36,837 nt of DNA from a virus. Made by a program: the position numbers and the translations under genes. Within the stretch, counting starts at the first letter, position 1; every line of letters begins with the position of its first letter. The stretch covers positions 1 to 36,837 of IMG/VR virus record IMGVR_UViG_3300044557_000138, one strand, 5' to 3'. Below the pieces are notes generated by a model. It saw nothing but the letters and a program-made list of their open reading frames with translations. It did not search any database and was not told the origin of the DNA. This document shows positions 1 through 36,837 of this stretch, one piece after another.

Positions 1-320
1 AGCAGTCGTCCCTGCGAGTCGACCACGGCCCGCAGATACTCCGGATTGTTCTCGTAGCTTCCATAGGCGTCACGCACCTGCCGGGGCACGCCAACGCCGA
101 AACGCATGTCACCGTCGCGTGTCACCCCATACAGCAGTCGTCCCTGCGAGTCGACCACGGCCCGCAGATACTCCGGATTGTTCTCGTAGCTTCCATAGGC
201 GTCACGCACCTGCCGGGGCACGCCAACGCCGAAACGCATGTCACCGTCGCGTGTCACCCCATACAGCAGTCGTCCCTGCGAGTCGACCACGGCCCGCAGA
301 TACTCCGGATTGTTCTCGTA
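1..320. repeat. 132-bp tandem repeat, 2 full copies plus 56 nt (other end of the array at 36447..36837)
   Basis: Copies starting at 1 and 133 are letter-identical. The copy starting at 265 is identical through ctcgta (320) and then diverges. Confidence 0.95.
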
Positions 321-662
321 TCCGCCCAGTTTCGCGGCGTCGTCGACGGCCTTCTGCTGGTCGGGCGTGAGGGCCTGCGCCTGGTAGACGCCGCCCTTGG
401 TCCATGTCACTCCGTTCCAGTAGTACAGGTGCCAGTCCGAGGCGAGCACGTAGGCCGCGTCGTCGCCCGTGGGGTGCGCGGCCTGCAGATCGGCGATGGT
501 CGGGTACACCTTGGGCGCGCCGCTGGCATTCTCCGCCGACTGCTTCGCGTCCCGGGCGGCCGCCACGGCCTCGTCCCTGGCCTGCGAGGCGGCGGGCGTC
601 ACGTCGCCCATGGGCCCGGGGATGGCGACGGTACGTTTGTCGATGATCTGATCCACGTTCAT
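1..662 (-). CDS. Tail fibre / receptor-binding protein with C-terminal SGNH esterase, N-terminal segment. The ORF leaves the left edge and is completed by 36837..35642 after circular closure.
   Basis: Hand translation from ATG 662..660 (AAGGAG at 672..667) gives MNVDQIIDKRTVAIPGPMGDV...KLGGYENNPEYLRAVVDSQGRLLYGVTRDGDM..., open down to base 1. Same 44-aa repeat and phase as ORF 35642..36835. Absent from the ORF track because it has no in-window stop. Confidence 0.8.
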   Translation of the reverse strand, partial: MNVDQIIDKRTVAIPGPMGDVTPAASQARDEAVAAARDAKQSAENASGAPKVYPTIADLQAAHPTGDDAAYVLASDWHLYYWNGVTWTKGGVYQAQALTPDQQKAVDDAAKLGGYENNPEYLRAVVDSQGRLLYGVTRDGDMRFGVGVPRQVRDAYGSYENNPEYLRAVVDSQGRLLYGVTRDGDMRFGVGVPRQVRDAYGSYENNPEYLRAVVDSQGRL

Positions 663-680
663 ATTGCTCCTTGATTTAAG

Positions 681-2820: not shown

Positions 2821-3549
2821 TCACTTCCAACACGATCGGACCATCAGCGAAGCCTGACCCGCATCGACGTTCACGGACACGCTGCTGCGGCCAGGCGGGA
2901 TGGGGAACGCGTCATCCAGGGTGACAAGCCCCTGCGAAGGCTGCATGTCGGCGAAGTCCAAGGTCAACGGGCTTGTGGAGCCTTGCCAGATGACCGCCTG
3001 GTCACCCAGGGAGCAGGTCAGACGTGAGACGCCCGACGCATGGACGATGGGCCATGTTGGCGCGTTACCTGTGTTCTCCACAAGCGCCACACCATTAGCC
3101 GCGGGGTATTCCAGCCAGGGACCGTACTTGTGCGGATCCGGGCAGTGCACGATCAGCGAACAGTCGAATCCCTGCTCGCCCCACCTCATCGTCGGCTCCG
3201 GATCATCCGCGAGCGCCCCGGTGAGTGTCCGTTCGCCGTGCGCGTCGTGGACGATGAGGGTGAGCGGTCTGCCGAGCAGGTCGCAGAGTCGGTCGGTGAG
3301 GGCGGCGTTGTCGACGCTGCTGTGTCGTTTGGCGGTGATGTCGATGGTGATGTCGCGCGCTTTTTGGGTGAAACGGCTGGGCCAGTATTCGCCGTCCTGT
3401 TGGGGTTTCGACTCGAAGGAATCCTTGTAACCCGGGGTGCCGTGGAGTCCTTTGATGCCGTTCTTGCGGATGCCGAGGATGCCGTCCGGCCTAATCCAGT
3501 GGTCGGACAGGGTGATGGTGTCGACGTCGCTTTGGATAGTGATGCGCAT
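2821..3549 (-). CDS. Distal tail protein (Dit)-like siphovirus tail component (242 aa)
   Basis: ORF track. Immediately downstream of the tape measure gene; size and position are typical of Dit. Confidence 0.6.
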   Translation of the reverse strand: MRITIQSDVDTITLSDHWIRPDGILGIRKNGIKGLHGTPGYKDSFESKPQQDGEYWPSRFTQKARDITIDITAKRHSSVDNAALTDRLCDLLGRPLTLIVHDAHGERTLTGALADDPEPTMRWGEQGFDCSLIVHCPDPHKYGPWLEYPAANGVALVENTGNAPTWPIVHASGVSRLTCSLGDQAVIWQGSTSPLTLDFADMQPSQGLVTLDDAFPIPPGRSSVSVNVDAGQASLMVRSCWK

Positions 3550-3552
3550 GGT

Positions 3553-6500
3553 CTACCACCTGTCCACTGCTGCTTTAGTGCGTGCGCTCCATATGTCGAG
3601 CACCGTGTCAGGGTCGGTGCCGCGCGCGTCGATTTTGGTGGTGACGGTCACGGTTTTGCCGAATGACCCTGAATTTAAGTTGGTACGCAATCTCGATGAA
3701 TCGTACTGTATACTTCCTGTCCGATTCATTTGGTTGAGGTTATCGATGCCGATGCGTTTCGCCGCCCACGCGCGCACGACATACTCCTGGTCGGACAGCA
3801 TCGTGGGGATACTGTCGCTCGTGGTCGTGCCCGGACCCATCACATACCCGCTGGGGCCGCCGGCAGCCAGGTGTTGGACTACACCACCTTCTGACCGGCG
3901 AACCAGACCGCCCGTAGAGTAGCCGAAAGCGGCTTTGACTTTGCCCCAGGCGTTGCCGACGAGGTTCGCGAAGAAGTTCGTCGTGTGGCTTTGCGGCACC
4001 GACCGCACGGCGCTGCTCGCGCTGCTTGCGCTCGACCAGATGCCACCGCTGTCGCCGCCGAAACCCGTATGGTGGTAGCCGGGCACGGACCTGATGTCGC
4101 CGCGTGCGCCTCCCGACGCGCCCGATACGCCACCATGGTCGCCACCGAAACCCGTGTGGTGATACCCCGGTACTGAGTAGATGGATCCCTTGGCTCCGTT
4201 TGAGGCGTTGTTGACGCCGTTTTTGTCGCCTCCGAATCCGGTGTGGTGGTAGCCGGGCACGGTTTTGATGGCGGCGCAGGAGCCGTTGACGACGTCTCGT
4301 ACGCCTTTGTTGCCGCCGGTGAGCTCGGTGTGGTGGCCTTTCGGGACCGCGTCGATATCACTGTGTGCCTTCTTGGCTTTGCTGACGGCATCATTGTTGT
4401 CGGCGGTGAGTAGTGACTTGACCTCCTTCGGGAGCTTGTCGTAGTTGATGTGCAGGTTGTTGGTATCACCGTTGGCCTGTGCGGTGAGCGCGTTCATGAC
4501 CGTGGTCTTCTGCTTCGGGGTCAGGTTGAGCGTGTCGAGATACGCTTGGACCTGACCTTTGGTCATGGCGGAGTTCTCCGTGATCTTCGTGCCGACGTTG
4601 CCGGGGATGAGTCCGAGCGTGTCCGCATAGGCGCCGGCCTGCTGTTCACTCATGCCCATGCTTTCCAGCGTCTGCATGAGCTGGTCGCGCATCTGCTGGA
4701 CTTCGTTCTTCGCCGCCTGCGTTGACTGCGCCATGGTGCCGTTGGCTTTCCCGTAGGCGAGCTGCTGCTGCACATTGGCCATGAGGGAATCCGTGGCCGA
4801 CTGGATTGCCTGGCTGCTCGCATCGGTCAGACCCTTGTTGTTCGACAGGTCGTCACCATTGGCTTTGAGCGTCGTGGACAGCTCGGAGAACTTCGACTGC
4901 ACCATAGAGGATGCCGAACTGATGCCCTGCGCGGTGGTGGAATAGTCGACCATCGCCTTGATGGTTTCCTTATAGGAGTCGCGCAGGCCTGACACGGTGT
5001 CCTTGATGGACTGCATCTTGGCCTTATACGTGCCGTTGATGGTGATACCGCTTCCGGCCGCATCGTTCAGCTGCTTCAACGCGCCGGAGTTACCTTCGAC
5101 CGCCTGTTGCACGGTGGACAGACTCGTGCCCGTGTCCCTGAGAAGAGCGGAGAGATTCGAGTCCTTGCCGAAGCTCGAGAGCTTGTCGATGAAACCTAGG
5201 TCACCGGTTTTGCCGGATTGCACGCTGCTCCAGAACGCGGTAGTGCTTTCCGCGCCACCACGCATCGCCTGACTGAACGCATCCGTCGTGGCCTTCGACT
5301 TCTCCTGCTGGTCGGCCATCGTCGCGAGATACCCGGTGACACCAAGGGCCGCGGCACCGAACATGACGCCCGCCGCGCTGAAACCGCCGACCGAAGATGA
5401 AAGCACGCCGGTCTTACCCGCGGCCCCTGCGGCCTTGGCACCGACCTGCTCTACTTTGCCTGCGGTGTGACCGAGACTCCCGGCGGCGGATTCGGCATTG
5501 CCCGCGGCGTCGGCCAGGGTGTCGGACAGCCCTGTGATGGCCTGCGTCTTCGACAGACGCTTCGACACCAGGTCGCCGATGGCACCGGATACCGAGCCGA
5601 TGCCGCCGGTCACGGTCTTGAGGATGTTGACAACGCCGCTGATCGGCGTGATGACGCTGCGCATCTGACCACCGAACAACACTGTCGCCGCGATGCCGGT
5701 CTGCACCGGCTGAGGCAGACGCTCGAATGTCTTGATGAGATCAGCGAGAATCGGCAGCACCGGCCGTACAAGATTCAACGTGGAACTTAACCCGTTGAGT
5801 CCGCGGTTGAGCAGGGAGAATCCCGAGTTCGCGCCCGTGAACGTCGACTTAACCGGTGAAACCGCGTCGATGACCTGCTTGACGCCACCAAGGATTCCCG
5901 AGAACGAGTCGAGCAGACGGTTCATGGTCGCGTCATCGATGTGGAATGCGGTCTGGAATGCTTTGGCGAACTGGTGCTTCTCCACCATGCCGCTGACGGA
6001 ATCCCAGGTCTTCGTGAACCATGAGGTGAACCCGGACAGTTTGTCCGTCGCGAAGTTGATGGCGCCGGTCAGCTGCGGTTTCAACGCGGTCAGCACGCTC
6101 TGGCCGAACCCGGTGACGGCGGCATGCCAGTTTCCGATGGCCCCTTCGAACGTGCTCGTCGACTGAGCGGCCTGCTTAGCCGCATCGGTCATGCCGAGAT
6201 CCATGATCGCCTTGTTGAATTCGTCGGCGGTGATCTGGCCCTTGGCCATCGCGTCACGGAAATTACCCGTGTAAGCGCCGTTCTTCTTCATCGCCTCCTG
6301 GAGCTTGCCGGAGGCTCCAGGGATGGCGTCGGCCATCTGATTCCAGTTTTCGGTCGTGAGCTTGCCCGCGCCGGCGGTCTGCGTGAGCACCATGCCCACG
6401 CTTTTGAACGTGTCGGCGTTGCCGCCCGCCACGGCATTGAGATTGCCGGCCGCTTCCGCGAGATCCCCATATCCTTTGACGCCGTTCGCCGCGAGCTGCG

Positions 6501-7350
6501 AGGTGACATTGCGGATGTCAGCGATGTCATACACGGTCAGATCTGCGTACCGTTGCGTGCTCTTGATGAGTTTTTCGATCGTGCCGTTGTCGATCTTCGC
6601 GAAATCGAGCGTGCTGCGGAACTTATCGGTGGAGTCCGAGGCGTCCATGGCGCTCGATGCCATGCCCGAGAACAATCCCATTATGCGTTGTGCGCCGGCT
6701 TGCGCGATGCCAGCGACGACGCCCCATTTGACGCTGAAGCGATTGAGATTGCCGGTTACGTTGTCGACCTTCTCGCGGTCAAGGCTCTTGACGCTGCTTC
6801 TGATCCGGTCGATGGCCCGCGTGAACAGGCTGGTCTTCGGAGCCTCCACCGGCCCAGTCTTCACGTCGGCGACGGCCTGCTTCGCGTTCTTCAACCGCTC
6901 CTGGGCAGTGGTGAGCGTCTGACTGGCTGTCTGCTCCCTGCGCTGGGCGGACGCGAGGCGTTCGGATGCTGCTATCGCCTGAGAGGATCCCTCGCCATAC
7001 TTGGCGACAGCCTCGTTGAGCTTCGCCTGTGCCACACGCACGCTACCGGCGGCATCCTGCTGCTTGAGCAGTGCGGAGGACATGGAGCGGGCCGCGGACG
7101 ACACCTCGCTCTTGAGCCTTCCCATCGCCTTGGAGCCGAGATCGCCCGTGGACCCATCGAACGACGTCTTGAGATTACGGCCGAGCTCGTTGCCGGTCTT
7201 CGAACCCACACCCTTGAAGAGACGCGAGAACAGGCTCGAGGACTCCTCGCCCGCGCTCTGAGTCTCCTTGAGGACGGTGGAGCGGAATCCCTTCATGGTC
7301 GCGAAAATACTCACATGACCGGTGCCGAGTTCTGCTCCGTTCGCCATCAT
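3553..7350 (-). CDS. Tail tape measure protein (1265 aa)
   Basis: Largest ORF. A/G/S/T/Q-rich and helical in style; follows the G/G-T chaperones. ATG 7350 forms an ATGA overlap with the T-ORF stop; GGAGGTGA at 7358..7351. Confidence 0.9.
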   Translation of the reverse strand: MMANGAELGTGHVSIFATMKGFRSTVLKETQSAGEESSSLFSRLFKGVGSKTGNELGRNLKTSFDGSTGDLGSKAMGRLKSEVSSAARSMSSALLKQQDAAGSVRVAQAKLNEAVAKYGEGSSQAIAASERLASAQRREQTASQTLTTAQERLKNAKQAVADVKTGPVEAPKTSLFTRAIDRIRSSVKSLDREKVDNVTGNLNRFSVKWGVVAGIAQAGAQRIMGLFSGMASSAMDASDSTDKFRSTLDFAKIDNGTIEKLIKSTQRYADLTVYDIADIRNVTSQLAANGVKGYGDLAEAAGNLNAVAGGNADTFKSVGMVLTQTAGAGKLTTENWNQMADAIPGASGKLQEAMKKNGAYTGNFRDAMAKGQITADEFNKAIMDLGMTDAAKQAAQSTSTFEGAIGNWHAAVTGFGQSVLTALKPQLTGAINFATDKLSGFTSWFTKTWDSVSGMVEKHQFAKAFQTAFHIDDATMNRLLDSFSGILGGVKQVIDAVSPVKSTFTGANSGFSLLNRGLNGLSSTLNLVRPVLPILADLIKTFERLPQPVQTGIAATVLFGGQMRSVITPISGVVNILKTVTGGIGSVSGAIGDLVSKRLSKTQAITGLSDTLADAAGNAESAAGSLGHTAGKVEQVGAKAAGAAGKTGVLSSSVGGFSAAGVMFGAAALGVTGYLATMADQQEKSKATTDAFSQAMRGGAESTTAFWSSVQSGKTGDLGFIDKLSSFGKDSNLSALLRDTGTSLSTVQQAVEGNSGALKQLNDAAGSGITINGTYKAKMQSIKDTVSGLRDSYKETIKAMVDYSTTAQGISSASSMVQSKFSELSTTLKANGDDLSNNKGLTDASSQAIQSATDSLMANVQQQLAYGKANGTMAQSTQAAKNEVQQMRDQLMQTLESMGMSEQQAGAYADTLGLIPGNVGTKITENSAMTKGQVQAYLDTLNLTPKQKTTVMNALTAQANGDTNNLHINYDKLPKEVKSLLTADNNDAVSKAKKAHSDIDAVPKGHHTELTGGNKGVRDVVNGSCAAIKTVPGYHHTGFGGDKNGVNNASNGAKGSIYSVPGYHHTGFGGDHGGVSGASGGARGDIRSVPGYHHTGFGGDSGGIWSSASSASSAVRSVPQSHTTNFFANLVGNAWGKVKAAFGYSTGGLVRRSEGGVVQHLAAGGPSGYVMGPGTTTSDSIPTMLSDQEYVVRAWAAKRIGIDNLNQMNRTGSIQYDSSRLRTNLNSGSFGKTVTVTTKIDARGTDPDTVLDIWSARTKAAVDRW
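3971..4347. repeat. In-frame repeat of about 87 nt (29 aa) near the tape-measure C-terminus, encoding VPGYHHTGFGGD motifs
   Basis: Three close copies of SVPGYHHTGFGGD..G....GA.G.I (DNA cores near 4051, 4138 and 4225, 87 nt apart), plus degenerate flanking copies AVPKGHHTELTGG and SVPQSHTTNFF. Confidence 0.8.
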
Positions 7351-10640: not shown

Positions 10641-11882
10641 TCATGCCGCAGCGCCAAGAGTCACCTTGGCGATGGCTGCCGGATACTTGACCTGCATCCC
10701 GAGACGTTCGCGCAGACGCACGGTGATCTGGTCGCTGGTGAAATCATCGCCATGCGAGTTGGTGGATTCAATGCGTACGCCACCCTTGCGGAACACCTTC
10801 GCGGCGGTTGAGAACGCGCCGACGACGACAGTGCCCTTCGGGATGCTGGCGGACACGACGGTACGCAGACCCCAAAGCAATGGCTGCTGCATGATTCCAC
10901 CATTGCCGTACTGACCAGCGAAGAAACCGCCACCAAAGTACTGACCGTTCGCATCCTTGGACAGGCGGATGGTCTGATAGTCGGCGGGGTTGATGACGAT
11001 GCCGTCAGCAGCGAAACCGGTGACCTCCTGCACCGCGGTGATGGCCTTGAAGATAAGATCAGGATCGCTGACCTTCTCGCCTGTGGCATTCGCCACGGTC
11101 TGGATGCCGTCGCGGCTGAGCACACCCTTGATGGAGTTGCTGGTGCCGTCCCCGGACAGCAAGGCAAGTTCCTCACGCAGCTGCAGATCATAGAGTGCGG
11201 TCGAGTTGATCTCGGACACCACATAGTCGGCATCCTCAGCCATGTCATCGGTGATTTTGAAGAATCCCGCAACCTCAGCCAGAGAATCGGTCACCCATGT
11301 CGGGTCAGCCAAATGAATCTGAGGCTTCGCGCCACCCTCGGCCACGAATGCCGTGGACCCCTCGAGCGCTCCGAACACCGGATACTTGATGCTGTTGCCG
11401 GAAACCGTGCCCGATCCGAGAATGTCGGCGAACATGAGCGGACGCTGGTATGGCATGACGAAGTTCGTGTCAATGTCGGTAACCAAAGGTCCGAAAGCGC
11501 CTGTCGCCTGGCCGACATGCTGCACGTCGGTTGCGGACTTGAACTCCGTGGTCTGGAATCCACGGGTCTTCGTGTCGAGAACGGTCATACCAGCGTTCTT
11601 CAAGCTCTTCATGAAGAACTCGCCTGGAGTCTTGGCGTCGATCACGCCAGACTTGGCCTCATTGTCGACCTTGGATTCCTTCTTGCCGAGGGAACCGAGC
11701 TGATCGAGCAGGGTCTTCTTCTCAGCAGCCTTGGCCAGCTGTGCGTCCAAGTCCTTCACTTCGGCGAGAATTCCCTTCAAAGCGGTGACATCCTCTTCGC
11801 CGAGTTCCTCGCCGTTCTCGATCCGGTCGTTGAACTTCTGCGCCTTGGCAAGTGCCGCAGCGCGTTTCTCCTTGAGATTCAT
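10641..11882 (-). CDS. Major capsid protein, HK97 family (413 aa)
   Basis: N-terminal coiled-coil delta-like region followed by HK97-style core motifs (e.g. LLSGDGTSNSIKGVL). Follows the prohead protease gene. Confidence 0.9.
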   Translation of the reverse strand: MNLKEKRAAALAKAQKFNDRIENGEELGEEDVTALKGILAEVKDLDAQLAKAAEKKTLLDQLGSLGKKESKVDNEAKSGVIDAKTPGEFFMKSLKNAGMTVLDTKTRGFQTTEFKSATDVQHVGQATGAFGPLVTDIDTNFVMPYQRPLMFADILGSGTVSGNSIKYPVFGALEGSTAFVAEGGAKPQIHLADPTWVTDSLAEVAGFFKITDDMAEDADYVVSEINSTALYDLQLREELALLSGDGTSNSIKGVLSRDGIQTVANATGEKVSDPDLIFKAITAVQEVTGFAADGIVINPADYQTIRLSKDANGQYFGGGFFAGQYGNGGIMQQPLLWGLRTVVSASIPKGTVVVGAFSTAAKVFRKGGVRIESTNSHGDDFTSDQITVRLRERLGMQVKYPAAIAKVTLGAAA

Positions 11883-17250: not shown

Positions 17251-17527
17251 GCGCTCGCCTCCTAGGTGGTGTTGCCCTGCTCTCGTCTGCCGGGGCGCTG
17301 AATGTTGTGGCGAGGCAGGGCAAGTGGGTGCCTGGTGGGGAAAGGTTGTAAAGACAACCAGGCAAGAATGTGCAGGCAGAGGCTTGGATACTGCTCTCGG
17401 AGTTATCCATTTGAGCTTGCCTGCTGGTACTGGCTCGCATTGCTATGTCAACGTTCGCCAGCGACATGCGCCCCGGACGCACCGGAGCGTGTCTGCGTTA
17501 GGCAGCACTTCATAGATGTGTTGCCAG

Positions 17528-17595
17528 TTCCTCTGGCGGGAATCGAACCCGCATACCCGGCATGGAGCCGGAGTCGCCTAACCGACCACAGAGGT
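17528..17595 (-). tRNA. tRNA-like element, non-canonical. Best read as Trp (CCA anticodon loop CUCCAUG).
   Basis: Minus strand: ACCTCTG TG GTCG GTTAGG CGAC TCCGG CTCCATG CCGGG TAT GCGGG TTCGATT CCCGC CAGAGGA A. The T-arm is perfect and the acceptor has 6 bp plus an A:A mismatch, but the D-loop is short, position 37 is U, the variable loop is 3 nt and no CCA is encoded. Confidence 0.4.
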
Positions 17596-19145: not shown

Positions 19146-19348
19146 GCATCCTCCTTGGGCTTGGCATCGCGTCGTGGTTTGCGCATTCGCTGGATGAGCA
19201 GGTAGGTTTCGTGATCGTCCATGTCGACCTTGACGGTCGGGAGCTCGCGCGCTTCGAGGTTGGCGAGCATCTTCTCCTCGCGCTTCCTTTTCCGGTATTC
19301 GCGCTGGTATTCGCGCTGGTATTCTGCGTATTTGCGTTGGTCTCTCAA
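19142..19348 (-). CDS. Basic hypothetical protein (68 aa) containing a 12-bp in-frame tandem repeat
   Basis: ORF track (TTG start in a TTGA overlap). ggtattcgcgct is repeated 2.6 times at 19294-19324, encoding EYQREYQREY. Confidence 0.5.
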   Translation of the reverse strand: MRDQRKYAEYQREYQREYRKRKREEKMLANLEARELPTVKVDMDDHETYLLIQRMRKPRRDAKPKEDA

Positions 19349-21077: not shown

Positions 21078-21945
21078 GATTGCCTCCTTCGTTTCTCCGT
21101 TGGCTGGCTTCCTCGGCTTCGAGCTGGGCGAGTATGCGCCGGTCGTTGTCCCACTCGGCCTGAGCTCTCTGCGTGCGGGTGACGATCCCTCCAGACCGCA
21201 TCCGCTGGCTGATGTCTGGTCCGTCATTCCATGAGTCGGTTTTCAACCATTTCGCGGGGTAGGGCGCATAGGTCACATCGCCGGTCAGATACGCTTGCAG
21301 CCCATTGATGATCTGATTGGGTGATGCCCGCTTGATGGCTTTTTTCCACTCTGCCCATGCCTTGGGTTTCTCTTTGCGCCGGAAGGACGGGTAGGTCTTC
21401 CAGAAGAATTCGAATTCTTCGGAATATGCGGGCGACCGTGAAACTTGTTTCGCGGGAATGTTTATACCCTGTTCCCCTGTTCCCCTGTTCCCCTGTTCCC
21501 CTGTTCCAGTCGCTGTGTTTCCGTCGCTGTGAACGGAAATTCCGTGACGGTCGTCGGAAAAACCTTGATTGCCGTAGAACTCCTTATCTGGAGCCGATTC
21601 TGAATCGTTTGGACCGGGGAGCCTAGATGATGCTCGACGTTCGTTCCTTTGGTGTTCATCCCACCGGGTGATCGAATAAAAACGACGGTTGTCGTTGGTG
21701 TAGAACTCCACCGAAAAGGTGTTTGCAACTTCCGTGAGAATGCGCGGAAATTCCGCGATAAACGTCGGAGATTCCGAGTCGTGTGGGAAAGCAAACGCCA
21801 TCAGCTCCATCGGAGTCCACTCTGCGCGTCCGTGGTCATCGGCCCAATTCCACATCGCTATATAAAGGAGTCTTGCCCATGGAGACGCTTTCGCAGTTGA
21901 TGGAGACCGCCAGAACTCAGGCTTGATTGTCCTAATCCTTGCCAT
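21025..21945 (-). CDS. Replication initiation / replisome organiser-like protein (306 aa)
   Basis: N-terminus MARIRTIKPEFWRS and internal FEFFWKTYPSFRRKEKPKAWAEWKKA are motifs I associate with phage replication organiser proteins. Position follows the recombination module. Confidence 0.55.
   Translation of the reverse strand: MARIRTIKPEFWRSPSTAKASPWARLLYIAMWNWADDHGRAEWTPMELMAFAFPHDSESPTFIAEFPRILTEVANTFSVEFYTNDNRRFYSITRWDEHQRNERRASSRLPGPNDSESAPDKEFYGNQGFSDDRHGISVHSDGNTATGTGEQGNRGTGEQGINIPAKQVSRSPAYSEEFEFFWKTYPSFRRKEKPKAWAEWKKAIKRASPNQIINGLQAYLTGDVTYAPYPAKWLKTDSWNDGPDISQRMRSGGIVTRTQRAQAEWDNDRRILAQLEAEEASQRRNEGGNHAIEDRRLEAHDRHQTP
21467..21506. repeat. 8-bp tandem repeat ccctgttc x5 inside the replication gene
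   Basis: Read directly: ccctgttc repeated five times without interruption. Encodes GTGEQGNRGTGEQG on the minus strand. Confidence 0.9.
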
Positions 21946-28492: not shown

Positions 28493-28534
28493 GTCTTCAC
28501 ACTTTGTTCGAACGTCTTCACATTTTGTTCGAAC
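28493..28534. repeat. 21-bp tandem direct repeat GTCTTCACA(C/T)TTTGTTCGAAC x2 upstream of the Ltp-like gene
   Basis: Read directly; one mismatch between the copies. Each copy contains TTCGAA. Confidence 0.85.
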
Positions 28535-29530: not shown

Positions 29531-29557
29531 TGTGGTACCACTGTGGTACCACTGTGA
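29531..29557 (+). repeat. Arm-type direct repeats TGTGGTACCAC x2.5 (right arm of attP candidate 1)
   Basis: Read directly. Ends 13 nt before the integrase ATG. Confidence 0.7.
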
Positions 29558-29569
29558 TGGGAGACGCGA

Positions 29570-31042
29570 ATGCCGCACCGCAAAGCATCCAACGGACGAA
29601 TAAACCCGTTCAGGGTAGCCAAGAAACGCAGTATCAGGGACGGGACCGAGAAGGAGTACACGGTCTGGCGGGCCAAGATCGATGTCGGTGAGACCAGAAC
29701 TGGGGCGCGCAGGCAGCGCACGGTCGAAGCGCCCACCCGGCGCGAATGCGAAGCCAAGGCGCGCGACATGCTCAAGGAGATACGCGACTACGGCGTAGCC
29801 GCCGACCGGCACGCGACCCTCGGCAAGTACGCGCGGCAATGGCTCAAGACCAAGATGGAGATGGTGGACCACAAGTCGTACCAGACCTACGAGACCGCCG
29901 TGTACGTGCATCTCGCCGACTATCTCGACACCCCGCTATCCAAATTCACGCCGACGATGGTCACCGGCATCCTGCGCGACGCGAAGGCCCATGACAAGCG
30001 CGGACGGGAGACCGGGCCGGCCGGCACGAGCGCGCGGCGCAAGATCAAGACCACGCTCGGCCAGATCATGAAGCTCGCCGTGGCCGACGGCATCATCAAA
30101 AGCAATCCCGTCGATGCGGCGGTCATCCCCGTCAGCTCCGACGTGGCGGCGAAAGAGCTGGCCCGTCAGCGCGAGGCGTTCACCGAACAGCAGGTGCGCG
30201 CCATGCTCGACGCGGCGGCGGGCCTCGGCATCGTCAGGCAGGCGAGGTGGTGGATGCGCATACTGAGCGCGATGCGTCAGGGCGAGACGCTGGGCGCGCG
30301 CATAGACGATCTCGCGTTCGTGCCGCAGGTCGTGCCCGTCGAGGTCGAGACGCAGGAGCCGCAGACCGTGACCATCACCGACGATCAGGGCGTGGAGCGG
30401 ACCGGCACCATCATGCGCAGGAGCGTGAAGAGCGTGGACAAGCGCGTTCTCGCAGCCGAATACCAGGTCAATTGGAAGCTTCAGGAGATTCCGAAGACGC
30501 ACGGCTGCGGGGAGCCGGAGAACGGACGCTACCCGTGCGGGCGGAAAAGGGGCGTGGACTGCCCGTATTCCAGGTGGCGCGTCCCCGAGGGGTACGACAT
30601 GCTGCCGGTGCGGGGAAGATGGTGCCTGAGCCGCCCGAAGAGCCATACAGGGCGCATCGTGCCATTGGTGCCCATGCTCGCGCAATTATTGGCCGCTTAC
30701 ATGAAGGAGACGGAGCAGTGGCCGAATCCTGCTGGCCTCCTGTTCCGGCACGAGGATGGTTCGCCCATCACGCCGAGGGAGGACTCCGAGGAGTTCCAGT
30801 CGCTGCTTCTCGCTGCCGGGGTCGAGCATCCCGAGCGGCGCACCACGCATGAGCTGCGGCATTCGATAGTGACGCTTCTGGCGCGCATGGGGGTGCCGTA
30901 TTCGATGATCAAGCAGATCGTCGGCCATTCCAGCGATGCGATGATCGAGCATTACCGTCATGCGGATGCCGGAGAGCGGCTAAGGGCGATGGAGACGCTG
31001 GACGGCGTTCTGGGCTTGAAGGAATTAGACGATTGCCGATAA
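29570..31042 (+). CDS. int: Tyrosine integrase (490 aa)
   Basis: C-terminal HELRHSIVTLLARMG...GHSSDAMIEHYRH (HxxR, GH, catalytic Y pattern). GGGAGA lies upstream of the ATG; adjacent to the att-like sites. Confidence 0.9.
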   Translation: MPHRKASNGRINPFRVAKKRSIRDGTEKEYTVWRAKIDVGETRTGARRQRTVEAPTRRECEAKARDMLKEIRDYGVAADRHATLGKYARQWLKTKMEMVDHKSYQTYETAVYVHLADYLDTPLSKFTPTMVTGILRDAKAHDKRGRETGPAGTSARRKIKTTLGQIMKLAVADGIIKSNPVDAAVIPVSSDVAAKELARQREAFTEQQVRAMLDAAAGLGIVRQARWWMRILSAMRQGETLGARIDDLAFVPQVVPVEVETQEPQTVTITDDQGVERTGTIMRRSVKSVDKRVLAAEYQVNWKLQEIPKTHGCGEPENGRYPCGRKRGVDCPYSRWRVPEGYDMLPVRGRWCLSRPKSHTGRIVPLVPMLAQLLAAYMKETEQWPNPAGLLFRHEDGSPITPREDSEEFQSLLLAAGVEHPERRTTHELRHSIVTLLARMGVPYSMIKQIVGHSSDAMIEHYRHADAGERLRAMETLDGVLGLKELDDCR

Positions 31043-34551: not shown

Positions 34552-35619
34552 TCAGAGCGTGGAGCCGTTGACGATGACCGTGTACCCCTTGCCCTTCAAC
34601 GTTGCCACGGCCGGGTCGGACGCCGACGTGCGGGGTCCCACGATGTTGATCGTGCGGGACGACGTGTCCGAACTGTAGAACTTCGCCACGCACTTCGCCT
34701 GGTCGATGAACATGTCGTCGGGGTTGCTCAGCCGCACGCCCTGCAAAGCCATGATGGTCGCCGAAGCCGCACGACGTCCCGCCGTCCACGTCAGCGACTG
34801 GGATTGCGCGCCGTTCACGTTCACGATCTGGACCCCGGACGGCAGCGCGGAAAGGTCGCCGGACACCGACCGCGCGTTCCACAGGTAGCACGTGAGCAGC
34901 GCCGTGCACCCGTCGAGCTGGTCGAGGTTCAGGTCGTTGCCCGCGAGGTTCTGGACCCGCAGATCCGTCATGAGTTTCTTGTCGGCGAGGTTCGACAGGC
35001 TCCCCGTGACCGGGGCCCCCATGGTGTTGCCCCAAAACAGGGCCGTGAGGCCAGACGCCGCCGACAGGCCACCGAGGTCGAGCCCCAGTTTCATGACGTT
35101 CCACACTTCGACTCTGACCGTGTTCGACCCGAGGGTGTCGCCAAACCGTCCCGTCATGGTGGAATCGACTACCATGTACACGCTCCGCAGGTTCCGTCCG
35201 GCGAGCGCGGTGATGTCGCCGGTGGTTCTTGTCAGTCTGAGGCTGCGGAGCGTGGGGGCGTATGTGAATTTCTCGACGTCGACGGGCGTGTTGAATGTGA
35301 TGTCGGATCCGAAGGAGATGGAGCGCAGTGTGTATATGGGGATAGTGAGTATGTGGCGTCCGACGGCGAGGTAGATGGTGGTGGTCGTCAGGTCGCCGTC
35401 TGCGGTGGCGGGGATCTGTGTGGAGGATCCCTTGGCCGTTCCGTTGGACGTGGTGAATTGGCTGCTGGTGCCGATGATGGTGGTCTGCGCGTAGGCGATG
35501 TTCATGGTGTTCGAGCCCGTGGCGTCCGATGCCGTGACGTCGATCGTGGCCACTCCCATGGTCGGCAGGCTCATATTGGTGGCGGCCTCCTGGAGGCGAG
35601 TGATGAGTGCTTCTGACAT
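34552..35619 (-). CDS. Leucine-rich-repeat-like tail/host-recognition protein (355 aa)
   Basis: About 7 units of 22-26 aa with an L..L.L....G.L..L rhythm (LRSLRLTRTTGDITALAG, LTALFWGNTMGAPVTGSLSNLADKKL, MTDLRVQNLAGNDLNLDQLDGCTA, LLTCYLWNARSVSGDLSALPSG). AGGAGAAAAAAACA precedes the ATG. Confidence 0.55.
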   Translation of the reverse strand: MSEALITRLQEAATNMSLPTMGVATIDVTASDATGSNTMNIAYAQTTIIGTSSQFTTSNGTAKGSSTQIPATADGDLTTTTIYLAVGRHILTIPIYTLRSISFGSDITFNTPVDVEKFTYAPTLRSLRLTRTTGDITALAGRNLRSVYMVVDSTMTGRFGDTLGSNTVRVEVWNVMKLGLDLGGLSAASGLTALFWGNTMGAPVTGSLSNLADKKLMTDLRVQNLAGNDLNLDQLDGCTALLTCYLWNARSVSGDLSALPSGVQIVNVNGAQSQSLTWTAGRRAASATIMALQGVRLSNPDDMFIDQAKCVAKFYSSDTSSRTINIVGPRTSASDPAVATLKGKGYTVIVNGSTL

Positions 35620-35641: not shown

Positions 35642-36837
35642 CTACTTCATTCCGAATTGGATGAAATAAGTGGGATTGTCCACGATGCATCGGATGATGA
35701 GCCGTCGGATGGCGCAGGCCATCCCGGAGTATCCGATGGCTCGGGGATGGCCTCCTATCATCATCCCCGTGTAGAGGGAAGACGAGAAGAACGGGTCGTC
35801 GAGCTGGTGGATGTAGCGGATGTCGTAGTGGTCGGCGATGGCGACCATCGCCGTGTTGAACGGTCTGCACACCGGGTCCATCGACGCCATGTCCATCATG
35901 ATGATGAAGGCGTCGGGAGCGTGCTTCTGGATGCTCTCGATGATGGTAGCGAAGTTTCCGTAGAAGCTGTCCGCGTGGGTGATGATGTCATCCTTGGTCC
36001 CCAGGTAGCCTATCCCATTCGAATAGGCGTCGTTGATGCCGAGTGCGAGAACGTACAGATCACATGGATCGGTGGACTGCATGAGCGTGAGCCCATGGTT
36101 GTCGGTCAGCCATGTGTCTGTCCTTAGGCCCGCCTTGCTGAAGTTGACGGCGGTGAGGCCATTCTGCCGTGCCATGATCTGCGGCCAGCTCAAATCGTAG
36201 TGGTCCGATCCCCAGCCGTTGGTCTGAGCGAGGTTGCCGCTCGCGTAGCTGTCGCCGACGACGCCGATAGTGGACAGCATGGCGAGGGACAGCCGGTCGA
36301 GCGTGGCTCTCATCGGACTCTCCAGTCGCGTCGTGAGAGAGTCGACAAGCTGACCGGACAGTCCGTCCACGTCCGAGACGGTGAGACTCCCGTCCACGGT
36401 CACGTCGCCCGTGAACCGTTTCGACCCGTCCCTATGCGTCCCCTCGAGCAGTCGTCCCTGCGAGTCGACCACGGCCCGCAGATACTCCGGATTGTTCTCG
36501 TAGCTTCCATAGGCGTCACGCACCTGCCGGGGCACGCCAACGCCGAAACGCATGTCACCGTCGCGTGTCACCCCATACAGCAGTCGTCCCTGCGAGTCGA
36601 CCACGGCCCGCAGATACTCCGGATTGTTCTCGTAGCTTCCATAGGCGTCACGCACCTGCCGGGGCACGCCAACGCCGAAACGCATGTCACCGTCGCGTGT
36701 CACCCCATACAGCAGTCGTCCCTGCGAGTCGACCACGGCCCGCAGATACTCCGGATTGTTCTCGTAGCTTCCATAGGCGTCACGCACCTGCCGGGGCACG
36801 CCAACGCCGAAACGCATGTCACCGTCGCGTGTCACCC
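35642..36837 (-). CDS. Tail fibre / receptor-binding protein, C-terminal segment: 44-aa repeats plus an SGNH/GDSL esterase domain
   Basis: Track ORF 35642..36835 (its GTG start is an edge artefact). GDS block VVGDSYASG, GxND block LGINDA, and GGHP near the C-terminus. Joins 662..1 in frame. Confidence 0.85.
   Translation of the reverse strand, partial: VTRDGDMRFGVGVPRQVRDAYGSYENNPEYLRAVVDSQGRLLYGVTRDGDMRFGVGVPRQVRDAYGSYENNPEYLRAVVDSQGRLLYGVTRDGDMRFGVGVPRQVRDAYGSYENNPEYLRAVVDSQGRLLEGTHRDGSKRFTGDVTVDGSLTVSDVDGLSGQLVDSLTTRLESPMRATLDRLSLAMLSTIGVVGDSYASGNLAQTNGWGSDHYDLSWPQIMARQNGLTAVNFSKAGLRTDTWLTDNHGLTLMQSTDPCDLYVLALGINDAYSNGIGYLGTKDDIITHADSFYGNFATIIESIQKHAPDAFIIMMDMASMDPVCRPFNTAMVAIADHYDIRYIHQLDDPFFSSSLYTGMMIGGHPRAIGYSGMACAIRRLIIRCIVDNPTYFIQFGMK
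36447..36837. repeat. 132-bp tandem repeat, 2 full copies plus 127 nt (other end of the array at 1..320)
   Basis: Copies start at 36447, 36579 and 36711, identical to each other and to 1-132. Confidence 0.95.

Follow-up and report, generated by a model that had tools for sequence, protein, structure and literature searches.

How does one perfect repeat come to lie at both ends of an assembled viral genome, and what does the gene that contains it encode? The question is raised by IMG/VR virus record IMGVR_UViG_3300044557_000138, a stretch of 36,837 nt that was analysed at its full length and is termed the window here. Both ends of the window fall within a tandem array of 132 bp units. The explanation that best accounts for the evidence, and one that is probably correct, is that the two ends belong to a single gene that spans the contig junction and encodes a fibre esterase with a stalk of recently duplicated modules. 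The gene product would be a fibre-type appendage attached to the baseplate and built in four sections: a short N-terminal anchor that is reused in other proteins, a small beta domain, a stalk of ~44-residue modules with the motif NPE[FYW] and a C-terminal SGNH esterase.

A repeat shared by both contig ends

Tandem Repeats Finder detects a 132 nt period with 100% matches and zero indels at positions 1-320 (2.4 copies) and again at positions 36447-36837 (3.0 copies). Full exact units begin at positions 1, 133, 36447 and 36579. Positions 36711-36837 carry a further unit that breaks off after 127 nt, and positions 265-320 are a partial unit of 56 nt; the linear contig carries 5.4 units in all. A perfect repeat of this size cannot be a product of chance. 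The first-pass annotation of this DNA had described a perfect 44-codon in-frame array, and the exact copies bear this out. The repeat unit, termed type 1, is read on the minus strand, where its 132 nt form 44 codons that translate as YENNPEYLRAVVDSQGRLLYGVTRDGDMRFGVGVPRQVRDAYGS, and the copies are 100% identical. A related unit, type 2, flanks the array (Table 1). The first 56 nt of the two types are identical at all 56 positions (36447-36502), whereas only 35 of the remaining 76 nt match. No other open reading frame of the window carries the unit, as judged by a scan with the family hidden Markov model (HMM) described below.

When the contig ends are joined, one open minus-strand frame extends from an ATG at positions 660-662 to a stop codon at positions 35642-35644, and the sequence AAGGAG is found 5 nt upstream of the ATG. 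The left-end open reading frame by itself has no stop codon and the right-end frame has no start codon. The terminal overlap is exact both at 127 nt and at 259 nt. The shorter overlap gives a protein of 576 amino acids with 4.42 units and the longer one a protein of 532 amino acids with 3.42 units. The direct terminal repeat (DTR) of the contig (1-259 and 36579-36837) lies entirely within the tandem array. The genome length is 36,710 or 36,578 nt depending on an arbitrary choice of overlap, and the same holds for automated completeness and DTR calls. As the terminal overlap is inside a tandem repeat, the copy number, the protein length and the "complete circular genome" calls obtained from the contig are provisional.

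On the minus strand, genes are in the order tape measure (3553-7350), Dit (2821-3549), Tal-like (1695-2813), two small open reading frames and then the fibre gene; an integrase gene is on the plus strand (29570-31042). This gene order, together with the integrase, indicates that the genome is that of a temperate siphovirus and that the contig is a circularly permuted form of it, opened within the fibre gene and not at an attachment site. The parsimonious reading is that the contig ends are two halves of one minus-strand gene in a circularly assembled temperate siphovirus genome of ~36.7 kb.

Copy number and the assembly graph

The first and last 127-mers of the contig are identical and constitute, in gene orientation, the final 127 nt of the periodic tract. 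Within the contig this 127-mer is continued either by GTATGG, which leads into another round of the repeat, or by CGAGGG, which exits into the type 2 unit. It forms the vertex at which a de Bruijn loop branches when k = 127. JGI metaSPAdes presumably runs with 127 as its largest k, a point on which the argument does not depend.

Three other assemblies hold the sequence of the array gene, and all are 100% identical to the window wherever they overlap with it. In JGI assembly 3300044857, one contig (L006) carries the N-terminal part and 132 + 99 nt of the tract, where it stops, and a second contig (L001) takes up the tract 99 nt before its end and continues through the esterase. Two Logan contigs (L009 and L010, from SRR16378546 and SRR16378547) start 30 nt before the end of the tract, which is what k = 31 would lead one to expect. 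Each of the four assemblies, with three k values (127, 99 and 31) between them, stops at its own branch vertex; the read sets may not be independent samples. That the assembly broke at the array and left the copy number open, as the first-pass annotation noted, is true of all four. The break had also been taken to suggest heterogeneity in copy number. This does not follow, in that a fixed perfect repeat longer than k breaks an assembly in an identical manner, and such a repeat fully explains the break.

The assemblies do set a lower limit. The B-A-B context, in which B is the 76 nt segment, is present in both L006 and the window, and this requires at least two type 1 units (n = 2 or more). The same limit follows from the graph. 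A single type 1 unit together with the 56 nt half unit would repeat only 56 nt, which is less than 99 and less than 127, and no loop would form. The presence of at least two full identical type 1 units, and no more than that, is proven, and this is the only hard inference on copy number. Duplication of a single unit by the assembler, an outcome that had been entertained at the start, is rejected on the same grounds, since a loop needs at least two units.

Beyond n = 2, arrays of two, three, four or more units look alike to reads that are shorter than the tract. About 259 nt of perfect periodic sequence form a loop at k = 127, and each extra traversal of the loop is therefore identical by construction. 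Zero divergence over ~4.4 units, from which a recent expansion had been deduced, is largely a property of the assembly graph, and 4.4 is one of several readings of the unit number, all equally valid. The recent duplication itself is upheld by other evidence, namely the comparison with the repeat family described below.

A small fixed array is possible, if somewhat doubtful. It would consist of exactly two type 1 units and the type 2 unit, i.e. the usual three-unit stalk of the family, with the extra copies representing loop traversals by the assembler and with no meaningful variation. In favour of such an array, the contig begins and ends at the k = 127 branch vertex, with both overlaps, 127 and 259 nt, exact. 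In addition, a 10 nt overlap joins L006 to L001 with a result of exactly n = 2, the mode of the family is three or four units per protein, and read-level evidence of n > 2 is found in none of the assemblies. However, SPAdes-type assemblers can set loop multiplicity from coverage, and if this took place here, the three to four units may reflect true depth. Perfect 132 nt tandem repeats are also intrinsically unstable in phage replication, and some heterogeneity is to be expected.

Exact DNA scans for the unit show no match in IMG/VR and none in JGI metagenome contigs. A protein-based search for the locus finds only relatives of the N-terminal anchor in IMG/VR, nothing in metagenome contigs and, among genome contigs, one contig of a Bifidobacterium metagenome-assembled genome (MAG) with 40 matching residues. 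A word-indexed protein search with a 94-amino-acid unit query returns nothing at E <= 10, the query being too short for a database of that size, and tblastn of one unit against cultured phage genomes gives no match. Since assemblies break at perfect arrays, short-read data will contain fewer of them than exist.

The repeat family and its predicted fold

A 44-position profile was built from two units of the window and the single unit of P0063, a fibre-type fragment, and was searched against 1.84 billion representative proteins. This search with the 44-amino-acid unit, a step that the first-pass annotation had proposed, detects 821 protein clusters at E <= 1e-3 and 376 at E <= 1e-10. The matched stretches number 2-9 per protein in the best 150 matches; a local re-count of the top 149 gives 2-8 units, with a mode of 3-4 per protein. 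The consensus of the unit is xxxNPE[FYW]xx[VA]xxDxEGK[IL]LxGIKxDGxxx[FY]GxG[VI]PxQ. Unit starts are often 37-48 residues apart in head-to-tail order and elsewhere have longer spacers of up to >100 residues. P0082, P0198 and P0212 display head-to-tail arrays with periods of 42-48 residues. Family members have tail-fibre N-termini and varied C-terminal domains, including SGNH (P0072), GDPD (P0068) and, as judged by eye, CotH-like domains (P0065 and P0108). Those that were examined mostly differ in composition from this phage of ~60% G + C, judged from sequences only.

Domain databases do not hold a model for the repeat. A single unit has no Pfam match at E <= 10, nine multi-unit members have no Pfam model on their repeats, NCBIfam has none, and the PHROG family phrog_1263 scores only 13.5 bits with the unit. 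A Pfam match of the full protein to Pox_A12 (8e-15) is rejected, as it arises from the summing of identical repeats and is gone when a single unit is used. Other sub-threshold Pfam matches on the repeats are rejected in the same way.

An independent family HMM was constructed from 601 units of 149 other proteins, with the window left out. The type 1 units of the window score 51-52 bits with this HMM (i-E ~1e-15) and the type 2 unit scores 42 bits (1.6e-12); by these scores the array belongs to the large NPE[FYW] repeat family. The type 2 unit had first been called degenerate, but it is not decayed. Its pattern, LEG...DG.K...GD.xV.G, recurs across the family, e.g. in P0086, P0110 and P0149, and represents a conserved second subtype. 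From these patterns, the stalk is read as n type 1 units plus one type 2 unit, and the minimal n = 2 gives three units in total, near the family mode.

The window protein resembles other members of the family (e.g. P0065-P0213 and P0063) in its units, its head-to-tail array and, in the case of P0072, its SGNH C-terminus. It differs from them in the identity of its units. Within single proteins of the family, unit identity has a median of 36% and reaches maxima of 97% (P0086), 86% (P0068) and 86% (P0129). Set against this median, the 100% identity found here marks a very recent duplication or homogenisation. In other members, P0068 has three super-repeats of ~93 amino acids, P0086 contains a block of two units in duplicate, with 97% identity between the corresponding units, and P0129 has six units, of which some pairs reach 86% identity. 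These stalks seem to have grown repeatedly by tandem duplication.

The identical type 1 modules would have arisen by recent in-frame tandem duplication. The likely cause is that the 56 nt identical first halves of the type 1 and type 2 units underwent unequal recombination with each other or allowed slippage during replication. The sharp boundary between the two parts of the unit (56/56 versus 35/76) and a tract length of 132n + 56 fit this putative mechanism. Once two copies had formed, at least 188 nt of perfect homology would ease further gain or loss of units, always in frame.

Gene 37 of phage T4 reportedly displays duplications of small domains. The tail fibre gene of Enterococcus phage EfV12-phi1 gained in-frame tandem duplications during coevolution, and long reads revealed one to five copies within one isolate (Wandro et al., 2019; PMC6365445, where Tetart et al., 1996 is cited for T4). 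EfV12-phi1 and the window have in common perfect in-frame tandem copies in a fibre gene, situated upstream of a distal functional domain, and in both a change in copy number keeps the frame. The two differ in that the EfV12-phi1 unit is 1.8 kb and emerged under laboratory selection, whereas the unit here is 132 nt, is a module of a conserved family, is metagenome-derived and is known from assembled sequence alone. A length-variable spacer, which had been proposed for the array from the outset, is compatible with the range of 2-9 units between proteins of the family and, by analogy, with the EfV12-phi1 precedent.

A hypervariable, contingency-like locus would go further. Copy number would differ among virions of one population and be selected to match the reach of the esterase to the thickness of the host surface layer. 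Such a locus would profit from an in-frame 44-codon unit, from perfect identity and from a homology long enough for slippage or recombination, all of which are present; the unit number varies across the family, the near-identical duplicates of P0086, P0068 and P0129 point the same way, and the one to five copies of EfV12-phi1 are a precedent. The four assemblies are nonetheless identical wherever they overlap, and the assembly break is explained by a fixed repeat longer than k. A contingency-like locus is considered improbable.

The fold of the modules was approached by structure prediction, as the first-pass annotation had also proposed. When AlphaFold2 was given the full protein and aligned esterase homologues, the array had pLDDT values of <50. 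A three-unit model made with a family alignment of 40 multi-unit segments has a mean pLDDT of 81, with unit cores at ~90, and each unit is modelled as a three-stranded beta-meander plus a short helix. The prediction defines a fold per unit but not the packing of one unit on the next (pTM 0.37), and there is no ring closure. With the three-unit model, Foldseek finds no PDB entry below E 0.01; the best match is to RHS/YD repeats at 0.014, and no propeller is found. A relationship to YD repeats, suggested by a VDxxGRL motif, is not supported. In predicted viral structures, an uncharacterised siphovirus protein ranks first (7.9e-10), ahead of tail fibres, spikes and esterases.

The unit profile also shows a likeness to PQQ-like propeller blades. 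It matches 8prj at 5.5e-11, which is a sum over six weak stretches of 10-16 bits each, and 3hxj at 1.3e-5. With hhalign, the family alignment and three blades of the Bagel protein align in register with a probability of 85% and E 6e-6. The blades of 3hxj and of the designed Bagel and Cake proteins (8prj and 6tjg) share with the unit a period of ~40 residues and the hairpin pattern Y-L-x-A-I-[DN]-x-x-G-K-L, and the repeat profile is in register with all three. PQQ-like blades are four-stranded, unlike the unit with its predicted three strands and helix. The sequence comparisons suggest a distant relationship, or convergence, between the fibre module and these blades.

The modules might accordingly be seen as ligand-binding, blade-like beta-meanders, relatives of the PQQ type that bind host glycan, in which duplication raises avidity or completes a propeller-like ring in an oligomer. 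The PDB profile matches, the hhalign result and the similar period of 40-44 residues argue for this, yet it is an unlikely function for the array. Each single stretch reaches just 10-16 bits, and the Pfam PQQ models match neither the protein, nor a single unit, nor the multi-unit members tested. The AlphaFold2 units do not close into a ring and Foldseek returns no propeller at E < 0.01. Furthermore, 2-9 units with irregular spacers of 37 to >100 residues are a poor fit to a closed propeller, and the residues conserved in the unit (the N-P-E cap and the D..G and DG turns) are structural turn positions. A stalk of small beta modules is the reading followed here.

Esterase, anchor and genome setting

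The C-terminal domain matches Pfam PF13472 Lipase_GDSL_2 with 49.3 bits (cut-off 32.9, E 1e-12) and PF00657 with 26.6 bits (cut-off 23.6, E 7.7e-6). The block residues S375, G415, N447 and H542 are each at least 90% conserved among 52 homologues. The domain is modelled by AlphaFold2 with pLDDT >90, and Foldseek aligns it with many GDSL esterases at E ~1e-7 (probability 1.0) and with the fibre esterase of phage G7C (4qnl) at 2.6e-5. PDB sequence matches are 7bxd and 6v8i. By sequence and by model, the domain qualifies as a member of the SGNH/GDSL fold. As the frame closes across the junction, the array does lie between an N-terminal region and a C-terminal GDSL/SGNH esterase, as first described. 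The enzyme most likely removes acyl groups, probably O-acetyl, from a host surface glycan during adsorption.

Homologues of the esterase are found at the C-terminus of proteins of 500-850 amino acids, some of which carry BppU_N or collagen repeats. None of these homologues has the repeat unit; among the proteins returned by the same search, it is present only in P0063 and in P0001, a fragment from the window. A look-up of P0220, a partial product of the window, gave no record.

The N-terminal anchor, comprising the first 40-48 residues, is found at 56-95% identity on otherwise different proteins of related phages and of one Bifidobacterium MAG. Its conservation on different C-terminal parts suggests, at the sequence level, that distal parts are exchanged on a common baseplate anchor. 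In P0064 the SGNH domain directly follows the anchor, with no repeat units. The Tal-like gene of L002-L004 displays 78% DNA identity. Further along the protein, residues 38-104 match PHROG virion-structural and unknown-function families, and residues 43-166 share 30% identity with a "baseplate/receptor binding protein" of Lactococcus phage proPhi6. From these weak to moderate matches and from the esterase homologues with BppU_N or collagen repeats, we infer that the protein is a fibre-type appendage of the virion.

Known phage proteins offer partial parallels. Gp63.1 of E. coli phage G7C also carries an SGNH esterase on a fibre or spike, but the identity is ~15%, and G7C is a podovirus with another fibre architecture that lacks NPE[FYW] modules. 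Two baseplate proteins from siphoviruses of Gram-positive hosts, the tail-associated lysin gp59 of Staphylococcus phage 80alpha (6v8i) and ORF50 of Lactococcus phage proPhi6, resemble the window protein in that they end in a GDSL/SGNH domain, and proPhi6 shares with it an N-domain with the pattern ...Y.W.G.W..GG.YQ. Unlike the window protein, both are without the repeat module, and the matches are weak, with E values of 0.027 (6v8i) and 7e-4 (proPhi6).

A different role has also been considered, in which the esterase belongs to the lysis module and is set free when infection ends, a part comparable to that of LysB in mycobacteriophages. The gene is at the boundary between the tail genes and downstream unannotated genes that lead to the presumed lysis region. 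However, the N-terminal domain matches virion-structural and receptor-binding proteins, the esterase homologues are C-terminal in 500-850-amino-acid proteins with BppU_N or collagen repeats, and the repeat family is found in proteins with tail-fibre N-termini. In addition, the tail-associated lysin of 80alpha has a similar SGNH domain inside the baseplate (6v8i). A role in lysis is most improbable.

Several points weigh against a junction-spanning fibre-esterase gene with a duplicated stalk. None of the contigs reaches across the array from one flank to the other, and the protein has no full-length copy among 5.8 billion proteins, so the single gene across the junction is a parsimonious reading and not a directly observed molecule. 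The array is found in no close relative by the scans and searches given above. Block V of the esterase is without the usual Asp three residues before the His (MMIGGHP; homologue consensus MxGGHPTA), and esterase activity is a prediction. Some SGNH enzymes function without the Asp of the DxxH motif, and its loss does not exclude activity. A role of the modules as stalk or spacer is presumed; the profile also resembles PQQ-like propeller blades. Fibre proteins usually assemble as oligomers, and monomer models are unreliable for the quaternary arrangement. The host is probably Bifidobacterium, an assignment that is based on one 3.1-kb Bifidobacterium MAG contig. The features of the gene are listed in Table 1.

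Table 1. Features of the array gene in the window, in gene order (residues in the 576-amino-acid numbering)
Feature	Positions	Strand	Description
Ribosome-binding site AAGGAG	668..673	-	Read from sequence
Start codon (660-662) and N-terminal anchor	519..662	-	Residues 1-48, MNVDQIIDKRTVAIPGP...; L002-L005, L007, P0064 and P0214-P0219 match only here, at 56-95% identity
N-terminal beta domain and helix to array	321..518	-	Beta domain at residues ~49-100, YVLASDWHLYYWNGVTWTKGG; helix to residue 114; AlphaFold2 pLDDT ~90 for residues 50-100
Left-end array part	1..320	-	Two full type 1 units in gene frame (189-320 and 57-188), then 56 nt crossing the contig junction; 52 bits each by family HMM built without the window
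Right-end array part	36503..36837	-	71 nt of a unit, then full type 1 units 36635-36766 and 36503-36634; 51 bits each by family HMM
Terminal type 2 unit	36371..36502	-	YENNPEYLRAVVDSQGRLLEGTHRDGSKRFTGDVTVDGSLTVSD; 42 bits by family HMM; LEG-type subtype common in family members
Linker or neck, array to esterase	36263..36370	-	Residues 335-370; AlphaFold2 predicts strands and a short helix, pLDDT ~60-75; putative linking role
SGNH/GDSL esterase domain	35729..36262	-	Residues 371-548; GDSYASG (Ser375), Gly415, GINDA (Asn447), GGHP (His542)
C-terminal esterase helix and stop codon (35642-35644)	35642..35728	-	End of the open frame

The phage has no close cultured relative, and the one genome-derived hint of a host is the Bifidobacterium MAG. 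DNA similarity to cultured phages is limited to the capsid gene (10644-11414), which is 72% identical to that of Propionibacterium freudenreichii phages B3, Anatole and E1. Three minus-strand open reading frames that flank the fibre gene have no PHROG match: 34552-35619 (355 amino acids), 1042-1698 (218 amino acids) and 681-1031 (116 amino acids). The 355-amino-acid protein shows exact conservation across four assemblies; it may act in fibre assembly or may itself be part of the distal tail, as a second component there.

Elsewhere in the genome, a tRNA-Trp gene (anticodon CCA) is found on the minus strand at 17527-17595, in the part with the lowest G + C content (0.52, compared with 0.62-0.66 in the tail genes). 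Short tandem repeats, all perfect or nearly so, consist of CCCTGTTC repeated 5.1 times (21467-21507), a 12-mer repeated 2.6 times (19294-19324), a 21-mer repeated twice (28493-28534) and an 11-mer repeated 2.4 times (29531-29556). The 21-mer and 11-mer repeats are near the integrase and the divergent region and thus may be operator, attachment-site or origin elements.

In-frame duplication in fibres and SGNH fibre esterases were both already known; the window adds a real case of a fibre esterase whose array of modules was duplicated recently. Of most use beyond the case itself is that a large phage fibre repeat family without a Pfam or NCBIfam model has come to light, and a curated model of the 44-residue unit would improve the annotation of many unannotated metagenomic fibre proteins. 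It is conceivable, although improbable, that the stalk is telescopic, with virions that carry different numbers of identical modules through ongoing slippage or recombination and an esterase reach selected to suit polysaccharide thickness, and that the NPE[FYW] module, with its at least 821 clusters, is a general duplicable block for the length or avidity of gut-phage fibres. If copy number does vary, the locus would be a natural counterpart of the laboratory-evolved EfV12-phi1 and T4 fibre duplications and a tractable case for the effect of stalk length on an enzymatic fibre tip.

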